Below are positions 2,137 to 26,929 of a stretch of DNA of 64,000 nucleotides, in pieces. A model generated the notes under the pieces. The model searched no databases, was not told where the DNA came from, and saw only the letters and a program-made list of their open reading frames with translations. The translations under genes and the position numbers were made by a program. The stretch comes from Escherichia phage nataliec: sequence record MN850611.1. One strand, given 5' to 3'. Each line of letters starts with the position of its first letter. Position 1 is the stretch's first letter.

Positions 2137-3246
2137 ATGACTACTAAAACTAAAGCACAGATTGACGCAGAAATTTACGAACTGGTTAAAGAAGGTAAGC
2201 TGACTAAAACAGCTATTGCACAGAAGTTCAATACTTCAACCCGTTCAGTTGGTCGTGCTGTAGAGCGTCATGAAGCAACCTTAAAAGGTAAGAAAAAGGT
2301 AGCTTCTAAACCAGCTACGAAGACTTTGAAGCAAGTTGCTAAATCAGTTAAAAAGAAAGCTGACAAACCAGTTGAAAAGGTTGTTAAAGAGCCTGTACAG
2401 AAAGCTCCGGTAAATAAACTGCATGAAGCTATGCAGAATGGCAACCAAATTGAGTACATGATTACTGGCGACTCTGTTATCATGACTTTCGGTGCAGATT
2501 CTGAAATCGTTGAATCTACCCATCCGAACTACAAAGAAATCGTGATGGCTGTTGTATCCGGTGAGTATAAGAAAGCTTTCGAACTGATGAACATTCGTAA
2601 GTCTATCGAAAACTTCACTCAGGGTGCTATCACCATCAAAGGTGACAAGTTATTCTACGGTGCTGTTGAGATGCGTTCTACTCTGGTTGACCGTATTCTT
2701 CACATGATGAAGACTGGAGATAAGGGTTTTGAACGCCTTGTGATGTTCTTCGAAAAACTGATGGAAAACCCATCTAAAGACTCTGTAGAACAACTTTGGG
2801 GATTCGTATCTCACCTTGATGTTGAAATTGATGAAGAAGGCTACATCATTGGTTGGAAGAAAGTCTCTACTCATGAAGGCAAGCTGGTTGACTCCCACAC
2901 CTACAGAGTACCTAATGATTTGGGTAACATTGTAGAAATGCCACGTTGGATGGTTGATAATAACCGTAACGTGACTTGCTCTCAAGGTCTTCACGTTGGT
3001 GCTTGGGATTACGTTCGTTTCTTCTCAGGTGATACAATTCTGAAGGTTCGTGTCCATCCACGAGATGTTGTATCTGTTCCAACTGATTACAACGATATGA
3101 AGATGCGCTCGTCTCGTTATGAAGTTGCAGCAATCGTTGATAATCAACGTAAAGTGCTGAAAGCATGGGATGGCAAGACTGAAGCTTTGCATGTCATCGT
3201 TGGCACTGCTGGGGAACTCATCTCTCAGCGTAAACGTGAAATCTAA
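2137..3246 (+). CDS. rIIB: rIIB-like protein with lysine-rich N-terminal insert
   Basis: 369 aa. C-terminal motifs LFYGAVEMRSTLVDRIL and VTCSQGLHV...KVRVHPRDVVSVPTDYNDMKMR match my recollection of T4 rIIB. Sits directly downstream of rIIA-like gene; RBS gagagagt upstream. Confidence 0.65.
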   Translation: MTTKTKAQIDAEIYELVKEGKLTKTAIAQKFNTSTRSVGRAVERHEATLKGKKKVASKPATKTLKQVAKSVKKKADKPVEKVVKEPVQKAPVNKLHEAMQNGNQIEYMITGDSVIMTFGADSEIVESTHPNYKEIVMAVVSGEYKKAFELMNIRKSIENFTQGAITIKGDKLFYGAVEMRSTLVDRILHMMKTGDKGFERLVMFFEKLMENPSKDSVEQLWGFVSHLDVEIDEEGYIIGWKKVSTHEGKLVDSHTYRVPNDLGNIVEMPRWMVDNNRNVTCSQGLHVGAWDYVRFFSGDTILKVRVHPRDVVSVPTDYNDMKMRSSRYEVAAIVDNQRKVLKAWDGKTEALHVIVGTAGELISQRKREI

Positions 3247-3261
3247 TAAGTAATTTCTTAA

Positions 3262-3286
3262 AAGGCTGCTTCGGCGGCCTTTTTTA
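3262..3286 (+). terminator. rho-independent terminator after rIIB
   Basis: GC hairpin gctgc-ttcg-gcggc followed by TTTTTT. Confidence 0.6.
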
Positions 3287-3346
3287 TTTGTATTTTGTGC
3301 AGAGTGCTGTATAATTGTTGTCACGATAAACTAAACAGGAGAACCA

Positions 3347-3895
3347 ATGAAGAAATTGATTCTAGGTTTGTGCTTAATGTTTACAGCACACTTATCTTAT
3401 GCAGTTGACTGCCCAGAGCTATCAATTAGCCAAAAAGTAAACATGTTAAAAGCTTACCAGTATGGTGAGAATAACATGGGTAAAGGTTGGGGTATCACTC
3501 TAGCTGCTATAGCCTTACAAGAGTCAGAGTTAGGTCTGAAGGTAGAGAATAAAAAGACACATGATTATGGTATTTTCCAGAATCACTTGAAGACTGTTGT
3601 AAAGCGTAACAAAATTAGCCCTAATGTGGCTAAAAAGAAACTCTTAAAAGACTTTGACTATGCTGCGAAGGAAACGCACAAAGAACTTGAGTTTTGGACA
3701 AAGGTGCATGGTCAGCCAAAGTCAAAGAAGACTTTACAAAAAGTTTTAGCATCATATAATGCTGGGTATTCGTATAGAATCCCTAAAGCTAAGAAATATT
3801 CTCAAGATGTTTATAACAATATGAAAGTAATTGCTCAATGTGAATTTGCAACAAACATTTCTAAGGTAAACCATGAAAAAATTAAGAAAGTCTGA
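3347..3895 (+). CDS. secreted protein, possible lytic transglycosylase (SLT-like)
   Basis: N-terminal signal peptide MKKLILGLCLMFTAHLSYA; segment AAIALQESELG...YGIFQN resembles the SLT catalytic E-S...GLMQ region; RBS caggag. Confidence 0.4.
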   Translation: MKKLILGLCLMFTAHLSYAVDCPELSISQKVNMLKAYQYGENNMGKGWGITLAAIALQESELGLKVENKKTHDYGIFQNHLKTVVKRNKISPNVAKKKLLKDFDYAAKETHKELEFWTKVHGQPKSKKTLQKVLASYNAGYSYRIPKAKKYSQDVYNNMKVIAQCEFATNISKVNHEKIKKV

Positions 3896-14146: not shown

Positions 14147-15820
14147 TCGACGCAACGGGGCTAAATAGCCCCAGATACCTTTACAGCCCCTTTCCCATAG
14201 GAGCTTTTTTACGTCTATCAAACCCCTTATACAACCCTTTCCCTTTCCTTTCCAGAATCTTATCAGACCTTAAAAAGCAATAACTCTATAGCCTACTCTA
14301 TAGCCTTTTATCAAATCAACTTAAATATAAGCCCATAACCCGAAAGGGAAGGGCAACCATTTAAACGCTCTATAAAGCCCTATAACAGCCTTATCAACCT
14401 AACTTAAGGGATTGCATTACCTCACCCTTAAAAGCCCTTTATAAAGCTTCCTAGAGCCTTAAAAGAATCTTATAAGGGTGTAAGCTTTATTATCTCGTTA
14501 GCTATCTTGTGAATAACTAAAAGGGCTATGAGATAGGAATCTATCGAATCCTATTGTTAGTGTCTTAAAAGTATGTTATAGGGGCTTAAAAGTTACTTTG
14601 AAGTAGCTTAAAAGTTACGTAAATGCTAGCCCCCTTAACATTTTCTTAACAATTTCTTAACAATCCCTACATAGTTATGCTTTTAAGACACTTGTTAGCA
14701 ACTTGTTAGCCCCTTGTTAAATCTCTGTTAAGACCACGTAAAAGCCTTGTAAGAGTCTTTGACATAGCCTTAAAAGCTCCTGTGAAGCCCTATAAAGAGT
14801 TATCTGTACAGTTGGGGTGTAACTACTAGGAAGAGACTTAAAAGAGCTTATAAAGAGCTATAGAGAGCTTTTAAGAGGTATGTTTAAGGAATCACTAAGA
14901 AAGGGAAGGGAACGATAAGAAAGAGATAGTGACCATGTTAATAGCTAGTTAAAAAGATTAAACACTTGTTAGAAACTTGTTAATTATCTTAACAAAATAA
15001 CTCTTTAAAATTAACTTGTTAGCTCTTGTTAGTCATCTGTTAAGATTCTGTAAAACCTATGTATCAACTGTTAAGAAACTGTTACAGCCTTGTTAGTTCT
15101 GTTAAGAATCTGTTAAGACCTTTGAAGAGTTGTTAAGAAGATGTGAGAACTGTTAAGAGATTGTTAAGGATATTTTAAAATTTTGCAAAGTACTTGTAAT
15201 GGAGCTGTTAAGGGCTACCAAGCAGATATACATCCTAATCAGATATTTTTGAGTTCCTTCAAAGACCTTAAAAAATGACTTGACAGTCCTATTTTATAAA
15301 AATTTTAAGATTCTGAATAATTACCTATACAGTCTTTTAAAAATACAGGTAATAACAGGCTTATAAGATACCTTGTTAGTACCGTGTTAGACCTTGTGAG
15401 ATAAGGTCTGTAAAGATATTCCTGTTAAGTTTGTTAAAACAGTCTATATAGAGGCTTAGTAATACCTAGTGAACACCTATAGAGAGTGTCATAGCTGACA
15501 TAGAGATTAAGAGGTGTATAGGAGCTTCTAAGAGGGTGTAGAGAGATGGTTAAGGTGATTGTATAGGTTGTTAAGAGGGATTGTTAGAAGAGTGTTTAGA
15601 AGGGCTATTTAGAAGGGCTATACAGAGGGCTATTAAGACCACTAGATAGTTACTAAGATACTATATAGTACTATATAACTATATAGAGAGTAAGATTAAG
15701 AAGGTTGTTAAGAAGGGTAGATATTTTGTTCACATATGATGGTGACCCAGAGGTTGGGACAACCGATAAAATTTTATAAGAATTAAAAAGCCCCCCAATT
15801 AAGGAGGCTCTTAAGATATT
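14147..15820. repeat. ORF-free iteron-dense region (candidate origin or protein-binding array)
   Basis: About 1.67 kb with no ORF of 60 aa or more in six frames, between convergent gene blocks. Dense short repeats: CTTGTTAG/CTGTTAAG at roughly 10-11 bp spacing (14940-15180), tandem TTCTTAACAAT and ACTTGTTAGC pairs, CCTTAAAAG copies, and a purine-rich TTAAGARGG series (15480-15730). Confidence 0.6.
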
Positions 15821-16378
15821 TTAAACCAGTGTTTCCAGAACTGTCTTCAGTGATGACTTGGTTGTCTGATAAAAATGAGTGAATCCATTGTTGTTATCGA
15901 ATATCTGCATCATGATATCATCTCCCTTGATTGGGTACACTCGGATATCATAGTGAAAACCATTAAAGACACAAGAACCACTACAGAATGCTCTAAAGTC
16001 ATCCATTGAGATATACTCTTCATGACCTGTGATTTTTATACAAACACCTTTACTCGGTCTCTTAGGGTTGATATCTTCCATCACAGACATACTCTGTCCA
16101 CCAAGAGAGACCACAGTGACCACTTTACGGTTCTTCTGTTTAAAGTACATCTTAACTTTCTGCAAAGTGTCTTCATAGAACGGATACGACTTCTCTACAA
16201 AGATTCCTTCAAGTGGCTCTTTACCATTTTGAACCTCTCTGTAACCCCGTACTGCAAAGATAATTTGTTCTAACCTATTAAGGCTTTCTTCGTAGAGTGC
16301 TCCACGAATATCATTCCAGTCAAGGACTAGGTAGTTGCCTTCAACTTCTTTTAAGTTATCTTTTTCCATATCTATCAC
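15821..16378 (-). CDS. hypothetical protein
   Basis: 185 aa ORF, first gene of the leftward block. Confidence 0.5.
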   Translation of the reverse strand: MIDMEKDNLKEVEGNYLVLDWNDIRGALYEESLNRLEQIIFAVRGYREVQNGKEPLEGIFVEKSYPFYEDTLQKVKMYFKQKNRKVVTVVSLGGQSMSVMEDINPKRPSKGVCIKITGHEEYISMDDFRAFCSGSCVFNGFHYDIRVYPIKGDDIMMQIFDNNNGFTHFYQTTKSSLKTVLETLV

Positions 16379-16382
16379 ACCA

Positions 16383-16847
16383 TTATCGTAAAACTTGGTA
16401 AGCTGGTACTGAAAACTTGTTGCTATTGTTCCTAATAAGGTCTTCTTCTGTTACTAAGAATGTAATCCCACATAAGTGCGTATAGTGGCTGTCATACTCG
16501 AATATTTTAAGTAAGTATTTACCATCATGATAAACAGATTCTACTACACCTTTTGCAACAATCTTTCCAGTCTTGAAGTCTTTAAGAGGGTATGTATTAC
16601 CAACTTTAGGGACTGTTTTCACTTCAGGTTCTTTTAGCTTCTCACTAGCTTCTACATCACCTAGTAAGTTAGAACTTTCAAAAGCTCTGAATCTCATATA
16701 AGCTTCTGAACATTCCCAGATAAAACAATGTACAAGAACCTTAGCAGCATGTCTTGAGCAATTCAACTCATCACAGACTTCTTTGTACATTTCATCTTTA
16801 GTTGAATTGGTAAGCATTGCTTTTCGAACTGTTTCTTTAATTTTCAT
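16383..16847 (-). CDS. hypothetical protein
   Basis: 154 aa ORF. Confidence 0.5.
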   Translation of the reverse strand: MKIKETVRKAMLTNSTKDEMYKEVCDELNCSRHAAKVLVHCFIWECSEAYMRFRAFESSNLLGDVEASEKLKEPEVKTVPKVGNTYPLKDFKTGKIVAKGVVESVYHDGKYLLKIFEYDSHYTHLCGITFLVTEEDLIRNNSNKFSVPAYQVLR

Positions 16848-17259
16848 AAGCTCTCCGAATAACCCTATTAAGCATCTCTAAAGTCAGCTTTCCAGACTCT
16901 AAATGTGGCATAACAAGCTTTAAAGCTTTTTCAACATCATGCACAACATCTATTATACCCTCTTCATAGGCTTCTACGAGGATATCTTTTACACTGATAT
17001 AGCCCTCATTGATAAGGATTTGCATATCAAAATCTTTTGATTGCTTGTTTAACTTACCTCTCCAATACCCATCAGCATTAAAAGATATCACTTCACACTC
17101 TTTAAAATCCATATCATCTGCATGGAATGGAGTAATTATTGTGCATTGGATTGGGTACTCTACACCAGTGGTGTCAACATCAAAGACCTTCACAGAAGTA
17201 AGTGGTTTCTTTGTTTTAGAGCAGTAAACTGTCAATCTTTTACCAATAAGCTCTTTCAT
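16837..17259 (-). CDS. hypothetical protein
   Basis: 140 aa ORF. Confidence 0.5.
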   Translation of the reverse strand: MKELIGKRLTVYCSKTKKPLTSVKVFDVDTTGVEYPIQCTIITPFHADDMDFKECEVISFNADGYWRGKLNKQSKDFDMQILINEGYISVKDILVEAYEEGIIDVVHDVEKALKLVMPHLESGKLTLEMLNRVIRRAYEN

Positions 17260-17311
17260 TTCGCTACCTTCTAAGTTTCTACAAAGGGGCTATCAAGTAA
17301 CCCCTAAGTTA

Positions 17312-17536
17312 TTACTCAGACTTTTCAGTCTTCTTGTCGGATTTCTTACTAGTCTTCTTCTCAGCTTTCTGCTCAGGTTCCTTCTCAGAAGTTGCCTTGA
17401 TAACCATATCAAGGAGTTCTGATAAGTCACTCTTCAGCAAAGTAACAGGCTGCTCGTTGTAGAAGTTTTTGTCAAGATAAACTTTGAACTCTTCTATAGA
17501 AGGAAATCCAAAAATTGGTACAGGTGTCTTAATCAT
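17312..17536 (-). CDS. hypothetical lysine-rich protein
   Basis: 74 aa ORF; hairpin AGGGG-loop-CCCCT downstream at 17283-17303. Confidence 0.4.
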   Translation of the reverse strand: MIKTPVPIFGFPSIEEFKVYLDKNFYNEQPVTLLKSDLSELLDMVIKATSEKEPEQKAEKKTSKKSDKKTEKSE

Positions 17537-20997: not shown

Positions 20998-21462
20998 TTA
21001 CTTTGGATATACACTGTCAAGATAAATGTCAGCTTCCATTCTACGTCTGTTTTTCAGGCCGTTTGAAGTGACCTTCTTACCTTTTACTGTAACCTTGTTC
21101 CACCACTGCATAGCTTCTGCACAACCGACCTTATTACCAGCATTGTGGCGCTTGATAAATGTGGAATCCTGCATAGCTGTGATACCGATGTTGTATGTTT
21201 CACTTACAAGTGCATCGAACTCATTCTGAGAAGTTGGAACCTTGATGGCTTTGTTCACTGCTGCAACGAACTTTTCAACATCTGCAAGAAGATACTGTTC
21301 AGCTTGTTCAGCGGTAATCTTCATGCCCATCTTAACAGGCTTCCCACCAATACGAATTGTCCCATACCCAATTGTGGGGATTCCAGCAGAATCTTCGTAA
21401 GCCTCAAGCTTAAGACCTTCAAAGAACTTAATAGCTTCTAAACCTTTTCTTGAGAGTTGCAT
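20998..21462 (-). CDS. endolysin, GH24 lysozyme (T4 e / lambda R family)
   Basis: N-terminal LEAIKFFEGLKLEAYEDSAGIPTIGYGT matches the catalytic Glu, Asp and Thr region of T4-type lysozymes; 154 aa. Confidence 0.8.
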   Translation of the reverse strand: MQLSRKGLEAIKFFEGLKLEAYEDSAGIPTIGYGTIRIGGKPVKMGMKITAEQAEQYLLADVEKFVAAVNKAIKVPTSQNEFDALVSETYNIGITAMQDSTFIKRHNAGNKVGCAEAMQWWNKVTVKGKKVTSNGLKNRRRMEADIYLDSVYPK

Positions 21463-22346
21463 TACGCCTCCCCTGCTGGGTTAACTGTAACTGTTGCTGC
21501 ATTAGATGTTACAGAGCCACCTGCACCAGTAACTACACAGGTGTAGCTTCCTGCATCAGCAGCGGTTGCACCTTCTTTGGTGTAAGTTGCAGCAGTTGCG
21601 TCTGGGATGACTTCCTCACCTTTCTTCCACTGATAACCTGTTGCACCAGTAGCCACAACATTCAGCGTTAAGGTCTCACCTTCAGTGATTTCTTGATTTG
21701 CTGGCTGTTGAGTGATTACTGGAAGTGCATTCACAGTAACTGTTGCTGCATCTGAGGTAACACTTGTTCCACCCTCTCCAGATACAACACAAGTGTATGA
21801 ACCAGCGTCAGAAGGTGCTACTGACTGTTTTGTGTAAGTTGCAGAATTGGCACTAGGGATGTCCTCACCATCCTTTTTCCATTGATATCCAGTGGCGTTA
21901 GTTGCTAGAATGCTTAGAGTAAGTGTGCCACCCTCATTGACTGTTTGACCTGTTGGTTGCTGAGTAATTGCTGGTGGCTTAATAGCATCCTTCAGCTTAG
22001 CATTCAACATTGAGAACGGCTTAACTCTTGCCAACCATTCACAGTAAATAGTGTCAACATCTTTACCATTGATGATTGCATACTGCAAATCCATGAAGAA
22101 ATCAGCAGTTCTCATCTGTGCACCAACACTGTAAAGGAGTTCATCACTAAAAGGAACTTTGTAGTCTGGTTTGTAATCAAACTTCTCAACTTCTGCAATA
22201 TCAGCTTCAGGCCAATATGAGCTATAGGTGAGTGGTAAAATAGCCTCTTGATATGTTCTAAAATCATATCTCTTACCAGCTTTTACGTTTGCAATGAAGC
22301 CCTTCACAAACTCTTTAAAGTCTGGGTAAGTCTTTGCTTTAATCAT
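21462..22346 (-). CDS. protein with two tandem Ig-like domains
   Basis: C-terminal half has two about 90-aa repeats (ITQQP...TGYQWKK...AGSYTCVV...ATVTVN); N-terminal domain is paralogous to the next gene. Confidence 0.55.
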   Translation of the reverse strand: MIKAKTYPDFKEFVKGFIANVKAGKRYDFRTYQEAILPLTYSSYWPEADIAEVEKFDYKPDYKVPFSDELLYSVGAQMRTADFFMDLQYAIINGKDVDTIYCEWLARVKPFSMLNAKLKDAIKPPAITQQPTGQTVNEGGTLTLSILATNATGYQWKKDGEDIPSANSATYTKQSVAPSDAGSYTCVVSGEGGTSVTSDAATVTVNALPVITQQPANQEITEGETLTLNVVATGATGYQWKKGEEVIPDATAATYTKEGATAADAGSYTCVVTGAGGSVTSNAATVTVNPAGEA

Positions 22347-22714
22347 TTCTTTTCAGCCTCTAAATGTGCGTTTAGTCTAAAATAACCTTTGTGATTCGGA
22401 GATACATCACCAACAACAATACCTTTAACCTTATAGCCTTTACCAATTACATACTGGATATCCATAAGGAATCTTCCAAGTCCAACAATATGGAACATTG
22501 GATATAATAGGTTCTCAGAATCTGGAATATTGATTTCAGGTTTGTAGGTACGCTGTTCGATTGTTGGTGTAATATCTTCTTCAGGCCATTTGCTGAGTCT
22601 CCATGTCAAAGGTGTTGGGATAACATCATTAAGGTTGTACCTTTCACCATTTTGCACGGAATTGATATAGGATTGTAGGAAGCAATAAAAGTCTTTTGCA
22701 CTCTTAGCTTTCAT
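22343..22714 (-). CDS. paralog of the N-terminal domain of the Ig-like protein
   Basis: Shared motifs KRYDF/ERYNL and FFMDLQYAI/FLMDIQYVI; 123 aa. Confidence 0.5.
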   Translation of the reverse strand: MKAKSAKDFYCFLQSYINSVQNGERYNLNDVIPTPLTWRLSKWPEEDITPTIEQRTYKPEINIPDSENLLYPMFHIVGLGRFLMDIQYVIGKGYKVKGIVVGDVSPNHKGYFRLNAHLEAEKK

Positions 22715-23743: not shown

Positions 23744-23971
23744 GGCAGACCTACAGCTTTAAGTAAGATGGTACAGTAATCCATACAACAAGTCAAGAAC
23801 TATTGCAAGTTAAAAAAGTTGTTGACAAAGTACTTGACAAGGTGTAGGCTTATAAATACTTAGAAGATAACTTAAAAGGTTCCTCTAAAAAGGCTATTTA
23901 AACAGATATCTTTCTGGATATCTATCTTTTATCTTAAAAGCCTTTTAAGAGGTCTTATAAGAGGCATACCA

Positions 23972-24343
23972 ATGAAAAACAGAACAAACAAAGGCCAGTT
24001 TAAAAAAGGCCAGTCTGGAAACCCATCTGGAAGACCCAAAGGCTCTCGTAACAAAAGTTCACTCGTAAAAGCTCAACTGACCATTGATAATTCTGCTGAG
24101 TTTGCTGCAAAGTTGTTTGAGGCGATTGTTACAAGGGACGCTGCTAAGCTTGCAGAGTTCGGGTTAAACACAGACGACGTAACCATCAAGAGTATGATTG
24201 AGGTCGGTAAAACTATCATGACTCACTCAGCAGGTGAGATGAAAGCCATTGCAGCAGACACTAAGAAGACCCCTGATAATGGTGGTCAGCCCCAGACAGA
24301 TAACAAACCAACGTTCTCTGCTGTAGCGACTCTCAAAAAATAA
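23972..24343 (+). CDS. hypothetical protein with basic N-terminal GNPSGRPKG motif
   Basis: 123 aa ORF; Gly/Pro/Arg/Lys-rich N-terminus suggests nucleic-acid binding. Confidence 0.45.
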   Translation: MKNRTNKGQFKKGQSGNPSGRPKGSRNKSSLVKAQLTIDNSAEFAAKLFEAIVTRDAAKLAEFGLNTDDVTIKSMIEVGKTIMTHSAGEMKAIAADTKKTPDNGGQPQTDNKPTFSAVATLKK

Positions 24344-24355
24344 TTTTAAAAGGTG

Positions 24356-24385
24356 TTGACAGACTCTACAAAGTTGCTCTAAAGT
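24356..24385 (+). promoter_or_regulatory. sigma70-like promoter embedded in a palindrome
   Basis: TTGACA, 18-bp spacer, TAAAGT; GACAGACT at the -35 is the inverted repeat of AGTCTGTC at the -10/+1. Confidence 0.5.
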
Positions 24386-24424
24386 CTGTCACATCAAACA
24401 ACAAATGAGAGAAGAGAGTAAAAT

Positions 24425-25840
24425 ATGAGCGAGTTATTTAAACATGCGCACCTTCATGCAGGTCGAACTGAAAATGGTGCTGTAAACCATACTTCATCAA
24501 TGTCTGCTTTAGTAGATTTTTATAAAGCTGCTGGTTCAAGTCGTAGCAATGTAGAAATCTTACCAGACCTTTTCTATAAAGCTTTGCATGAGGATGTTGA
24601 TGTTGCAGTTCGTATTTTACTGCATATGCGAGATGTACGAGAAGGTATGGGTGAGCGTAAAGCTTTCCGAACTGTTTTACTTCAAGCGATTGAAGATAAA
24701 GTTTTAGAGCCTACACAGGTTCTTCGCATTATGGATAAGATTGCAGAACTTGGTCGTTTTGATGACTTCAAAATCTTCGTGGGTACTCGTTTCGAGACAG
24801 ATGCCTTCAAGCATTTAGAAGCAGCATTACTAGACCCTGCAACAGCAGGTTTGGCAGCTAAGTGGTTACCACGAGTCAAGCCACGTCATAAGCAGTTTGT
24901 AAAACGTTTCTGCAAGTTTGCCAACTTGAGTGAGAAAGAGTACCGCACACTGTTGTCTGCACTATCTGATACAGTTGAGCAAAAAATCTCTGCTAATGAG
25001 TTTGGTAAGATTGACTACAGTAAAATTCCTTCACTTGCTGCTGCACGTTACCAAAAACTCTTTAATCGTAAAGATGGAGAACGCTACAAAGCTTACATCG
25101 AGTCCTTTTCAAAAGGTGAGACTAAGATTAACGCTGGTGCTGTTTACCCATACGATGTGATTAAATCTGTCAAGTATGGTAATGCAGATGTTGCTAATGA
25201 GCAGTGGAAAGCACTACCAAACTGGATGGCAGAAGGTGAAAACATCCTATGTATGTCTGATGTTTCAAGCTCAATGTCTTGGGTGAATTTTGGTTCAATT
25301 ACTGCTCTTGATATTGGTGTATCACTTGCATTGTATGTGGCAGAACGCAATACAGGTTTCTTTAAGAATGAGTTAATGGTTTATTCAACAAACCCTCACT
25401 TCATCGAACTGAGCGGTGATTTACGAAACCGTCATCGTCAGGTGATGCGACACGTTGAATATGGCTCAACTAACTTACAGGCAGCTTTTGACCGTATTCT
25501 TGAGACAGGTAAAAGAAACAACTTGACTCAGAAAGATATGCCAAGTAAGCTTATCATCTTCTCCGATATGGAGTTCAATCAGGTTGATGGAGCTAACGGT
25601 CGTACAAACTTTGAAGCAATTCGTAGTAAGTACAAAAAAGCTGGATACGAAATGCCTCAACTGGTATTCTGGTACTTAGCAAACCGTAATGGTACTTGCG
25701 AAGTGTCTGTTAAGGATAACGGTGTAGCAATGGTATCTGGTTTTTCTCCAGCTACTTTAAAAGCTCTGCTTGGTGGTGAGAAGTTTGACCCAATCAGCGT
25801 AATGCTCAAAGCAGTAATGATTGACCGTTATATCTGGTAA
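24425..25840 (+). CDS. vWA-domain protein with Ro60/TROVE-like features (candidate Rsr ortholog)
   Basis: C-terminal vWA with MIDAS-type DxSxS (CMSDVSSSMS) and distal FSDME; the ordered blocks VYPYDVIKSVKYG, DVSSSM and IIFSDMEF parallel Ro60 blocks IHPFHILIALETYKTG, DVSASM, VFTDNE as I recall them; 471 aa. Confidence 0.45.
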   Translation: MSELFKHAHLHAGRTENGAVNHTSSMSALVDFYKAAGSSRSNVEILPDLFYKALHEDVDVAVRILLHMRDVREGMGERKAFRTVLLQAIEDKVLEPTQVLRIMDKIAELGRFDDFKIFVGTRFETDAFKHLEAALLDPATAGLAAKWLPRVKPRHKQFVKRFCKFANLSEKEYRTLLSALSDTVEQKISANEFGKIDYSKIPSLAAARYQKLFNRKDGERYKAYIESFSKGETKINAGAVYPYDVIKSVKYGNADVANEQWKALPNWMAEGENILCMSDVSSSMSWVNFGSITALDIGVSLALYVAERNTGFFKNELMVYSTNPHFIELSGDLRNRHRQVMRHVEYGSTNLQAAFDRILETGKRNNLTQKDMPSKLIIFSDMEFNQVDGANGRTNFEAIRSKYKKAGYEMPQLVFWYLANRNGTCEVSVKDNGVAMVSGFSPATLKALLGGEKFDPISVMLKAVMIDRYIW

Positions 25841-25858
25841 AAAGTTTTAAAAAGGGTA

Positions 25859-25887
25859 TTGACAATGTGTTTGATACCCTTTAATAT
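25859..25887 (+). promoter_or_regulatory. sigma70-like promoter at the head of the tRNA array
   Basis: TTGACA, 17-bp spacer, TAATAT, flanked by inverted repeat AGGGTAT/ATACCCT; a second TTGACA element follows near 25950. Confidence 0.55.
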
Positions 25888-26005
25888 GTTCTACATAGAA
25901 ACGAAACGAGAGCTTTTCTAAGATACTGAAAAATATTTTAAAAAAGTTCTTGACAACCACTAAAAAATAATGTTAAAGTGGTTACATAGAGTTTGAAAAG
26001 TTTAT

Positions 26006-26082
26006 CTCTGTTTAGCTCAGCTTGGTAGAGCGTTCCGTTTGGGGCGGTAAGGCCGGAGGTTCAAGTCCTCCAACAGAGACCA
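26006..26082 (+). tRNA. tRNA-Pro (anticodon UGG), CCA encoded
   Basis: Hand fold: acceptor ctctgtt/aacagag, D stem gctc/gagc, anticodon loop tTTGGgg, T arm ggagg-ttcaagt-cctcc. Confidence 0.65.
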
Positions 26083-26099
26083 AATTTAAAGGGGTTACT

Positions 26100-26456
26100 A
26101 TGAGATTTTTAAAAGAATGTCCAGTTCATGGTTTAACTGAACATAGCATTCATAAGAATGGTAACGCCGGTAATAGAGTAAATTGTCTAAAATGTTGTGC
26201 ATTAAGGACAAAACTTAGAGAGAATGCCAATAGAGAGAAAGCATATAAGCTTTATGGCGATAGCTGCAAAATTTGTGGCTATAATAAATGTAAAAATGCT
26301 TTAGAATGGCATCACCTTAACCCAAACGAAAAAGAGAATACACCATCAAAACTTATGGGTGCATCTTGGGAAAAGGTTAAAAAAGAACTTGATAAATGTG
26401 TTTTGCTATGTGCTAATTGCCACAGAGAGGTTCATAGCGGAATTACAATGATTTAA
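26100..26456 (+). CDS. HNH homing endonuclease
   Basis: Motifs WHHLNP and CANCHREVH; ORF track start 26022 overlaps tRNA-Pro, so ATG at 26100 (RBS aaagggg) is preferred. Confidence 0.7.
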   Translation: MRFLKECPVHGLTEHSIHKNGNAGNRVNCLKCCALRTKLRENANREKAYKLYGDSCKICGYNKCKNALEWHHLNPNEKENTPSKLMGASWEKVKKELDKCVLLCANCHREVHSGITMI

Positions 26457-26457
26457 T

Positions 26458-26532
26458 GTCGTAGAAGGCAAATGGTTAGCCACCTGACCTTCAATCAGTT
26501 GCTCGCAGGTTCGAATCCTGTCTACGACACCA
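26458..26532 (+). tRNA. tRNA, anticodon ambiguous (loop cCTTCAa, possibly UUC/Glu with C33)
   Basis: Acceptor gtcgtag/ctacgac, T arm gcagg-ttcgaat-cctgt, CCA encoded; anticodon stem has a mismatch. Confidence 0.5.
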
Positions 26533-26538
26533 GTTTTG

Positions 26539-26612
26539 ACAGAAGACCAATTACAGCAAACTTAATCTTATTCATCTGAAGGTAAATCGGACAAAGAAGA
26601 TATTTGGTCTGG
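26539..26612 (+). ncRNA. helix-bracketed structured element 1
   Basis: 5' CAGAAGACCAA pairs with 3' TTGGTCTGG, enclosing about 55 nt; sits between two tRNA genes. Confidence 0.35.
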
Positions 26613-26623
26613 TCATTAAGAAT

Positions 26624-26700
26624 TGCGGGTATAGAGAAAGGGCGTCTCACATGTCTCATTAGCATGGTATCGGCAGGTTCGACTCCTGCACCCGCCTCCA
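26624..26700 (+). tRNA. tRNA-Met or Ile2 (anticodon CAU)
   Basis: Acceptor (t)gcgggt/acccgc(c), anticodon arm catgt-ctCATta-gcatg, T arm gcagg-ttcgact-cctgc, CCA encoded. Confidence 0.6.
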
Positions 26701-26706
26701 AATTTA

Positions 26707-26770
26707 CAGAAGACCGTTTACAGCAATATTTATTAAATTTTTAGCGGAAAAATTGAAAGATACGGTCTGG
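26707..26770 (+). ncRNA. helix-bracketed structured element 2
   Basis: 5' AGAAGACCGTTT pairs with 3' ACGGTCTGG; internal hairpin AATTTTT-agcgg-AAAAATT. Confidence 0.35.
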
Positions 26771-26783
26771 TAATACTAAACAT

Positions 26784-26860
26784 GGTTAGGAAGCACATAA
26801 GGTATGTGCGGTCGCCTGTTAAGCGAATGGCACAGGGTTCGAATCCCTGACTAACCGCCA
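26784..26860 (+). tRNA. tRNA-Asn (anticodon GUU)
   Basis: Acceptor ggttagg/actaacc, D stem gcac/gtgc, loop ctGTTaa, T arm caggg-ttcgaat-ccctg, CCA encoded. Confidence 0.7.
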
Positions 26861-26929
26861 AATTTAGGAGAGAAGCGATTGCTCACCGATTTGTAAGGTG
26901 CAAGTCCTTAGCCTGAATAGAAATTAAAT

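Follow-up and report, generated by a model that had tools for sequence, protein, structure and literature searches.

A divergent Ro60-like phage protein and its putative Y-like RNA partners in the tRNA array of Escherichia phage nataliec

Ro60/Y RNA particles are conserved from bacteria to humans, human Ro60 is a major autoantigen in lupus and Sjogren syndrome, and the core function of these particles is still debated. A locus in Escherichia phage nataliec (sequence record MN850611.1) raises the question of whether a phage can carry a Ro60-like protein together with RNA partners of its own. The stretch of DNA analysed here (the window) is 64,000 nucleotides (nt) long and belongs to a Felixounavirus (Felix O1-like myovirus); around the gene in question, the region 23900-26500 shares 96% identity with Salmonella phage Meda and is covered to at least 80% by about 250 phage records. 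An initial annotation had described a 471-amino-acid (aa) vWA protein with a metal ion-dependent adhesion site (MIDAS) and three ordered blocks that paralleled those of Ro60. The open reading frame (ORF) was confirmed with exactly the coordinates then given, and all the quoted blocks are present in its product, AVYPYDVIKSVKYG at residues 239-252, followed by SDVSSSMS (D279-x-S281-x-S283) and IIFSDMEF (D381). The gene and its parts are the following:

24425..25840, + strand: Ro60-like protein gene, 471 aa; Pfam DUF2828 and DUF7788; PHROG 850, 'RNA-binding protein'
24425..25228, + strand: N-terminal all-helical repeat region, about residues 1-268; predicted Ro60-type HEAT-like ring
25229..25837, + strand: vWA domain with complete MIDAS, D279-x-S281-x-S283 (nt 25259-25273), T349 (25469-25471) and D381 (25565-25567)

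Is the product related to Ro60? In Pfam, the window protein matches DUF2828 (E 6e-29) and DUF7788 (E 7e-43), with neither TROVE nor VWA assigned, and PHROGs places it in phrog_850, also labelled 'RNA-binding protein'. The family comprises at least 2,556 clusters, both domains being found in all 120 clusters listed, and full-length homologs were detected by tblastn in 709 of 50,697 phage records (~1.4%). Within an alignment of 35 family members (40-89% identity), D279, S281, S283, T349 and D381, which make up the complete MIDAS set, are invariant, bearing out the MIDAS-type DxSxS and distal FSDMEF block that had been pointed out earlier. Searching the PDB with the single sequence (phmmer) returned no matches for the Ro-like protein; a profile search of the PDB ranked Ro60 second and third at non-significant values (E 0.65 and 1.3), with the MIDAS site aligned in register. 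The relationship emerges from comparing profiles. When the family profile was aligned by hhalign to a profile of 25 genuine bacterial TROVE/Rsr proteins, full-length Rsr having been reached via plasmid TROVE genes, the two aligned over residues 231-443 with a probability of 92.6% (E 4.6e-7), every MIDAS residue falling in register. The three blocks named in the initial annotation are all contained in this alignment: VYPYDVIKSVKYG pairs with RiHPFxiLxAlavYxsG, DVSSSM with DVSGSM, GSTN with GGTDC and FSDMEF with YTDNET, i.e., the hPF helix precedes a MIDAS of the DxSxS ... T ... D type, as in a Ro60-type vWA domain.

The predicted structure extends this relationship to the whole protein. An AlphaFold model computed from the family alignment (pLDDT 87, pTM 0.87) shows a helical-repeat ring closed by a C-terminal vWA domain, the Ro60-type toroid that had been suggested as something to look for. 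In a Foldseek comparison with the PDB, the top eight matches are all Ro60, Rsr or the Ro60 of Thermus phage phiLo, and they are full-length (E 6e-9 to 7e-7, TM-score up to 0.66); matches ranked below these cover the vWA domain alone. By sequence, then, the vWA half is homologous to Ro60, and the ring half is Ro60-like by its predicted fold. Together, these results support the view that the gene product is a divergent phage member of the Ro60/Rsr superfamily, in which a helical-repeat ring is closed by a vWA/MIDAS domain.

Annotators have already recognised this family as Ro-like. The label 'Ro-like RNA binding protein' is given to homologs in about 95 Mycobacterium phages, which again combine DUF2828 with DUF7788; the name goes back to evidence of the HHpred type. 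The Cluster L mycobacteriophage proteins (Samty gp54, LeBron gp53) and CKA15_055 of Listeria phage CKA15 belong to the same family as the window protein, with full-length identities of 29-34% and E-values down to 1e-77. Overexpression of LeBron gp53 is moderately toxic (PMC13148394), and in a 2025 multi-omics study of CKA15 the best HHpred match of CKA15_055 was D. radiodurans Rsr (PMC12282133).

If the protein is Ro-like, what would be its RNA partner? The tRNA array downstream of the gene carries four repeats of the form AGAAGACC-N3-T-N-CAGCAA, each followed downstream by a complementary GGUCU and then a G, and each folding as a hairpin closed by the GGUCU-complementary stem. The motif AGAAGACCNNNTNCAGCAA occurs four times in the window, a number reached in 0 of 100 shuffles. 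The elements, referred to below as Y-like, are:

26540..26613, + strand: Y-like element 1, short; stem AGACCAA/UUGGUCU, ACAGCAA at 26553-26559, G after the 3' strand; matched by covariance model R1 (see below)
26707..26772, + strand: Y-like element 2, short; stem AGACCGU/ACGGUCU, ACAGCAA at 26720-26726; matched by R1
27162..27236, + strand: Y-like element 3, short; stem AGACCAA/UUGGUCU, motif variant UCAGCAA at 27175-27181; matched by R1 with filters off
27246..27382, + strand: Y-like element 4, long and YrlA-like; main stem AGACCGUU (27253-27260) / AACGGUCU (27370-27377), then G; ACAGCAA at 27262-27268

All four lie 0.7-1.4 kb downstream of the Ro-like gene on the + strand, within the ~4 kb and on the strand expected of a Y RNA. 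Element 1 is closely packed between tRNA-Glu (26458-26532) and tRNA-Met (26624-26700), and element 2 likewise between tRNA-Met and tRNA-Asn (26784-26860). Element 4, the permuted tRNA-like element that the initial annotation had placed about 1.4 kb downstream of the gene, proved real. On a stem joining its two ends it carries a V hairpin, a canonical T arm (27304-27320; GAAGG-UUCGAUU-CCUUC), a closed acceptor-like hairpin of 7 bp (27321-27338) and a canonical D arm (27341-27355; GUGU-AAUGGUA-GCAC); in the minimum free energy (MFE) fold there are also an outer stem UUAC/GUAA and an inner 4-bp stem CUUA/UAAG. Bacterial YrlA Y RNAs are defined by such a circularly permuted tRNA-like arrangement (PMC4201824). 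An ordinary tRNA is not what element 4 resembles: Rfam's tRNA model matched its T arm alone (14.9 bits), a cloverleaf with paired acceptor ends and an anticodon arm was not found, and ARAGORN called no tRNA in it or in any of 21 long elements. In the positional orthologs of 14 Felixounaviruses, the stems of element 4 are 97% paired, compared with ~40% when slid, and the acceptor-like hairpin shows three compensatory pairs.

Two other readings of this segment were discarded. The sequence GGCGAAG at 27297-27303, considered as a canonical Ro-binding motif, overlaps the T stem and is unconserved in the orthologs. Stems of the type GGUCU...tRNA...AGACC enclosing whole tRNAs were also considered and rejected, because in distant loci no two elements share a stem and, in most loci, tRNAs are lacking between them.

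Whether these elements form a family was examined in 80 viral loci with relatives of the gene, 15 of them Felixounavirus-like and 65 distant (39-47% identity; individual loci are labelled L018 and so on). A scan for the permuted core (T arm, closed hairpin and D arm in this order) gave 43 matches on the gene strand, 0 on the other strand and 0 in shuffles, several of those with long "loops" being merely adjacent tRNAs. In five loci (L018, L024, L030, L039, L068), the permuted core adjoins the gene within closing stems that differ in sequence, followed by U-N-C-N-GCAA; these five and Enterococcus phage EfV12-phi1 share the design of element 4. A descriptor consisting of a stem, TNCNGCAA, the complementary strand and a G found 198 matches on the gene strand, compared with 41 on the opposite strand and 34 in shuffles (both strands counted). 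By position, 44 matches fall within 500 nt past the stop codon, where the opposite strand has 0, compared with 1-12 in other bins. Among the matches in the window, the one at 29478-29684 resembles coding sequence and was set aside, and those at 24095, 40098 and 51274 were treated as background.

Since the descriptor selects for pairing, the pairing percentages it yields are partly circular, and a covariance model (R1) was built as an independent test, trained on 21 short elements from distant phages only. Over the whole window and both strands, R1 ranked element 2 best (E 0.004) and element 1 second (E 0.04), the local E-values being 5e-4 and 0.005; with filters off, the four best local matches are elements 2, 1 and 3 (the last being third, E 0.069) and the 5' part of element 4. 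Over 805 kb of untrained loci, 52 of 52 matches are on the gene strand. In an alignment of 55 R1 matches, likewise all on the gene strand, pairing in the stem reaches 99.5%, changes on both sides are seen at each of the seven pairs, and the covariation score of 0.93 compares with 0.19 in controls that were shuffled or slid; 53-55 of the 55 carry C-A-G-C-A-A and the G that follows the 3' strand. Support free of the circularity is provided by the controls (strand, position and shuffles), by the cross-trained model and by the positional orthologs.

The hallmarks of the family are a covarying stem of 7-8 bp that starts with A-G and ends with C-U, a single-stranded ACAGCAA that directly follows the 5' strand, and a G that follows the 3' strand (the handle). 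The interior is variable and often contains tRNA parts in YrlA-like permuted order; these payloads range from a full permuted cloverleaf through T plus D arms or a T arm only to one normal-order tRNA body and an unstructured A/U-rich loop. Members are found next to the Ro-like gene, and always on its strand, in Vibrio, Campylobacter, Listeria, Enterococcus and Mycobacterium phages. In remote phages, whose proteins are 29-36% identical, tandem elements abut the Ro-like gene:

Mycobacterium phage Samty: three elements, downstream of the gene
Campylobacter phage CPX: two elements, upstream
Listeria phages LP-083-2 and CKA15: three elements, upstream
Enterococcus phage EfV12-phi1: four elements, upstream, two of them full permuted cloverleaves

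Could the elements themselves be functionless, as selfish or mobile repeats or as decaying tRNA pseudogenes? The presence of four similar copies in 850 nt, of an inserted HNH homing endonuclease nearby and of other degenerate tRNA-like pieces in the array would suit such an origin. Against it, an invariant handle is combined with covarying stems in phages of Proteobacteria, Firmicutes, Actinobacteria and Campylobacter; stems differ between the copies of one locus; the acceptor-like hairpin is kept by compensatory changes in positional orthologs; and the orientation relative to the gene is fixed (52/52 and 55/55 matches on its strand). This explanation is hardly credible.

Is the family, then, linked to the gene or to tRNA arrays? 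The initial annotation had proposed checking co-occurrence in related phages, and an element was found at most 800 nt from the gene in at least 46 of the 65 distant loci, most of the apparent misses holding relaxed or longer variants. An element is also present in 27 of the 36 loci that lack a tRNA within 8 kb, indicating that it goes with the gene and not with tRNA arrays. The T5 tRNA array, with 25 tRNAs and annotated stable RNAs and no Ro-like gene, contains no element. No conserved protein-coding neighbour of the Ro-like gene was found, the best cluster being present in 16 of ~69 loci.

These observations bear directly on the proposal that the vWA/MIDAS protein has a non-RNA role, as a virion-associated or assembly factor, and that the elements belong to tRNA biology (degenerate tRNA genes or punctuation of the array), with synteny as the only link between them. 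It would account for the location of all 535 tRNAs in the loci on the gene's strand, for tRNAs nearby in 29 of the 65 distant loci, for the lack of sequence similarity between the N-terminal half and TROVE, and for the homolog in purified CKA15 virions (see below). The elements that persist beside the gene where tRNAs are lacking, their absence from the T5 array, a conserved handle that is not a tRNA feature and a fold match that spans both the helical ring and the vWA domain all speak against it, and we regard it as quite improbable.

How does the Ro60-like protein with its Y-like elements compare with known Ro systems? In the Rsr systems with YrlA and YrlB (Salmonella rsr-yrlBA-rtcBA, D. radiodurans RYPER and M. 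smegmatis; Chen et al., 2014, PMC4201824), a ring and a vWA/MIDAS domain are likewise combined in one protein, the small RNAs likewise lie within a few kb on the same strand, and a long RNA with a permuted tRNA-like domain (V, T, closed acceptor hairpin and D on a stem) likewise accompanies shorter RNAs that are devoid of it. Similarly to the rtcBA-linked Rsr, an RtcB-like ligase is encoded 1.3 kb downstream in Listeria phages. The Rfam YrlA family (RF02553) matches long elements of relatives over the full length of the YrlA model, those of EfV12-phi1 (45 bits, E 4.5e-7) and Samty (38 bits, E 5.7e-5) among them, aligning well in the T, acceptor-like and D core; the scores in relatives (45.2, 37.9 and 34.3 bits) have significant E-values and are below the 69-bit gathering threshold. 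In contrast to YrlA, whose motif is GNCGAA(N)G, the phage handle is ACAGCAA after the 5' stem strand, and the phage payloads are more varied (permuted cloverleaf, T plus D, T only, normal-order tRNA body). By analogy, the Y-like elements would work as YrlA and YrlB do, as handle plus payload, while standing outside the curated Rfam family.

A second point of comparison is the Ro60 of phage phiLo, which binds phage Y-like RNAs (Yrl1 and Yrl2) and attenuates host PNPase (Hu et al., 2025, PMC12135203; PDB 9KOP, 9L5Y). That protein is TROVE-annotated and ~15-16% identical to the window protein, and its RNAs were identified by a CGAA motif; binding and PNPase attenuation are demonstrated there, whereas the window family is known here from sequence and predicted structure. 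The 22 phages listed by Chen et al. (2014, PMC4201824) were chosen from TROVE-annotated genomes, a criterion that would exclude the DUF2828/DUF7788 family. A defined RNA partner of this family (stem plus ACAGCAA, payloads, distribution) was found neither in the searchable literature nor in Rfam, and the RNA family, its handle motif, the modular tRNA-derived payloads and the breadth of its occurrence appear to be newly described.

The Listeria phage CKA15 provides an instructive case. Just upstream of CKA15_055, and on its strand, lie non-coding regions whose transcription ranks with the highest in the genome, and the authors speculated that these nearby regions are Y RNAs (PMC12282133). The region with the most aligned reads, 26,236-26,727, was annotated as three tiny coding sequences (CKA15_059-061), ROOL being unmentioned (PMC12282133). 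About 1 kb upstream of the Ro-like gene, Rfam detects a full-length ROOL RNA (RF03087) both in CKA15 (L085 2428-2979, record ~26,195-26,746) and in LP-083-2 (L083 2429-2980); the scores are 90 and 87 bits (E 2e-18), compared with a gathering score of 99.1. The CKA15 match contains the whole of 26,236-26,727. According to Rfam, the top-transcribed region is thus a ROOL RNA and not a Y RNA, and the Y-like elements lie in a different, unannotated gap (record positions ~25,287-25,556).

Several results weigh against the interpretation of the locus as a Ro-like/Y-like ribonucleoprotein (RNP). The Pfam comparison put forward in the initial annotation succeeded for vWA (vWA_Ro60 in 6 of the 35 family members, best E 9e-4, and VWA_2 in 17 of the 35) and failed for TROVE (PF05731), which matched neither the window protein (E <= 1) nor the 35 members (E <= 10) nor four remote members (E <= 1). 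Moreover, the N-terminal 230 residues show no profile similarity to the 25 Rsr proteins (hhalign 0.2% probability, E 0.27), so that the ring is founded on predicted structure. Rfam's YrlA has no match in element 4 of the window at E <= 10, the outer, Ro-binding stems of the relatives' long elements fail to align to YrlA, and the canonical Ro-binding motif, GNCGAA(N)G in bacteria and GGUCCGA in metazoa, is absent, with ACAGCAA in its place. Purified CKA15 virions were found to contain CKA15_055 (57% sequence coverage; PMC12282133), which a Y-RNP model does not predict. Finally, in many loci the elements lie in a possible 5' or 3' untranslated region (UTR) of the gene, a location compatible with a cis-regulatory role.

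This last point raises the possibility that the protein is Ro-like and the elements act in cis, as autoregulatory operators in the UTRs of the gene or as sites (e.g., for RNase III or RNase E) that govern the processing or stability of its mRNA and of neighbouring transcripts. Their positions fit: an element starts 20-420 nt past the stop codon in most distant loci, elements are directly upstream of the start codon in the Campylobacter, Listeria and Enterococcus phages and in L018 and L024, and the motif is found 35-55 nt before the start codon in several of the apparent misses. In the window, however, the elements are 0.7-1.4 kb downstream of the gene, past two promoter-like sites, a tRNA and the HNH gene, and are interleaved with tRNAs. 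They form tandem arrays of 2-4 copies with differing stems and tRNA-like payloads, and some phages have a second cluster 6.5-8 kb from the gene. Arrays with swappable payloads are a better fit to stable trans-acting RNAs than to operators, and a cis-acting role is considered unlikely.

We therefore favor a phage Ro-like/Y-like RNP, in which a Ro60-like ring protein is probably accompanied by four Y-RNA-like partners; the proposal of a Ro60-like protein plus RNA module in the initial annotation is supported to this extent, binding being suggested by analogy. Ro60 proteins bind Y RNA at the outer face of the ring and hold single-stranded RNA ends in its central cavity. From the linkage and the analogy with Ro60, we infer that the ring protein binds the stem and ACAGCAA handle. 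Each RNA has this constant handle and a variable payload, which in element 4 is a circularly permuted tRNA-like domain as in YrlA. The Y-like RNAs probably share a transcript with the tRNA array, from which the enzymes that process the neighbouring tRNAs would free them; because elements 1 and 2 are within 6-11 nt of these tRNAs, ordinary 5' and 3' tRNA processing would release them. Through their payloads the RNAs may attract host factors able to recognise tRNA-like shapes or structured RNA, as modelled on Rsr/Y RNA/PNPase and on the phiLo Ro60, and the RNP could thereby recruit or sequester a host RNA-processing factor, either an exoribonuclease such as PNPase or a tRNA-recognising enzyme. 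In infected cells, RNA decay, the maturation of tRNAs or RNA repair would be altered as a result. The tRNAs that are often nearby and the RtcB-like ligase of the Listeria phages point to a role in tRNA or RNA quality control or repair, which is the least certain part of this proposal.

A broader hypothesis can be offered tentatively, and is doubtful at present: that a phage-specific Ro60 branch, present in ~1.4% of sequenced phage genomes (Felix O1-like, KVP40-like, Listeria P100-like, Enterococcus, Campylobacter and Cluster L mycobacteriophages), possesses its own class of Y-like RNAs as programmable adaptors. Constant handles and interchangeable tRNA-derived payloads in tandem arrays might allow one ring to capture several host tRNA- or RNA-processing enzymes; such particles could protect or mature phage tRNAs or blunt RNA-targeting defences, and the protein may come with the virion.

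A very divergent Ro branch would in this way be paired with a clearly defined and easily recognised RNA handle. The family occurs in tractable phages, namely Felix O1-type phages of Salmonella and E. coli, Listeria P100-type phages and LeBron-type mycobacteriophages, and would offer a simple system for studying the function of a Ro ring and its RNA, with handle and payload separately mutable and infection phenotypes directly readable. As the host Salmonella has its own Rsr/YrlA/RtcB system, competition between phage and host at the level of Ro and Y RNA becomes testable. In several phage genomes, the elements are also candidates for the identity of some highly transcribed regions that lack annotation and of some small ORFs of doubtful status, and the covariance model could seed a new RNA family.

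How might the gene and the array be expressed? Three promoter-like sites are relevant here:

24347..24392, + strand: promoter-like site of the Ro-like gene; A/T-rich upstream tract, TTGACA (24356), 18-nt spacer, TAAAGT (to 24385)
25859-25887 and 25950-25979, + strand: two promoter-like sites between the gene and tRNA-Pro, within 25859..25979

The palindromic sigma70-like promoter that the initial annotation had assigned to the gene was recovered as a candidate, TTGACA-18-TAAAGT at 24356-24385, with a 12-nt inverted repeat (24357-24368 / 24380-24391, 92% complementary) that spans both hexamers. Overall, promoter-like sites in the region are at chance level (10 vs 10.1 expected). The extended form TTTAAAAA-N5-TTGACA occurs 19 times in the window, compared with 2.9 expected (sites include 13100, 15267, 23809, 25846, 25937 and 27765), and this recurrence makes the site of the Ro-like gene look like the ordinary promoter type of the phage. 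Sites of the extended form often carry an inverted repeat bridging the -35 and -10 hexamers. The two sites downstream of the gene probably drive the tRNA and small-RNA array.

Further observations concern the RNA family in other phages. In a group of large phages (L049, L050, L054, L055, L064, L076, L079, L080), a second handle-bearing cluster lies at ~15,800-17,350, 6.5-8 kb downstream of the gene and beside a lone tRNA. At L068 10329-10427, a tRNA body in normal order (D arm, anticodon-like arm and T arm) has its acceptor stem replaced by the family stem and motif. Two unusually long Rfam 'tRNAs' (113-121 nt) are found at L039 9895-10015 and 10025-10137, just upstream of the YrlA-like element, and in EfV12-phi1 (L084 ~3190-3770) a conserved repeat of ~45 nt, AAAACGGTTTTGGC...GCCGGAAC, precedes each of the four Y-like elements and could form its own hairpin. 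Gene 55 of Samty (L081 5562-5756), annotated as a 64-aa 'hypothetical protein', overlaps two of the three Y-like elements, one of them matched by Rfam YrlA (E 5.7e-5), and is probably not protein-coding.

Within the tRNA array of the window, a segment of ~145 nt (27384-27528) adjoins element 4 and has a closing stem of ~20 bp, ATTATCTTTGTAGATAAG / CTTATCTACAAAGATAAT (MFE -45.7 kcal/mol), with no Rfam match and no ACAGCAA handle. Around the Ro-like gene, Rfam detects nothing but tRNAs. The tRNA at 26458-26532, missed by default ARAGORN, scores 55 bits in Rfam and is called tRNA-Glu(UUC) by relaxed ARAGORN, which rules out its reading as a UGA suppressor and brings the array to at least 25 tRNAs. 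Degenerate tRNA-like pieces are found outside the called tRNAs (26897; 28011-28089; 28238-28312; 27704-27888) and include weak matches to an Rfam tRNA (31.7 bits) and to a tRNA-Sec-like RNA, together with a hairpin at 26897 that resembles a T loop; there is also a sub-threshold match to permuted tmRNA (29 bits, gathering score 47). An HNH endonuclease ORF (26100-26456; Pfam HNH, PHROG 2255) lies between tRNA-Pro and tRNA-Glu. Most Felixounavirus relatives do not have it, with alignments stopping at 26086, and it is probably a homing-endonuclease insertion in the array. On the other side, directly upstream of the Ro-like gene, 23972-24343 (+) encodes a DUF5681 protein whose adjacency is not conserved outside Felixounaviruses, and further upstream the product of 21462-22714 (-) combines two immunoglobulin-like domains (Ig_3/Ig_2, E 1e-20 to 1e-22) with a paralogous N-terminal module.

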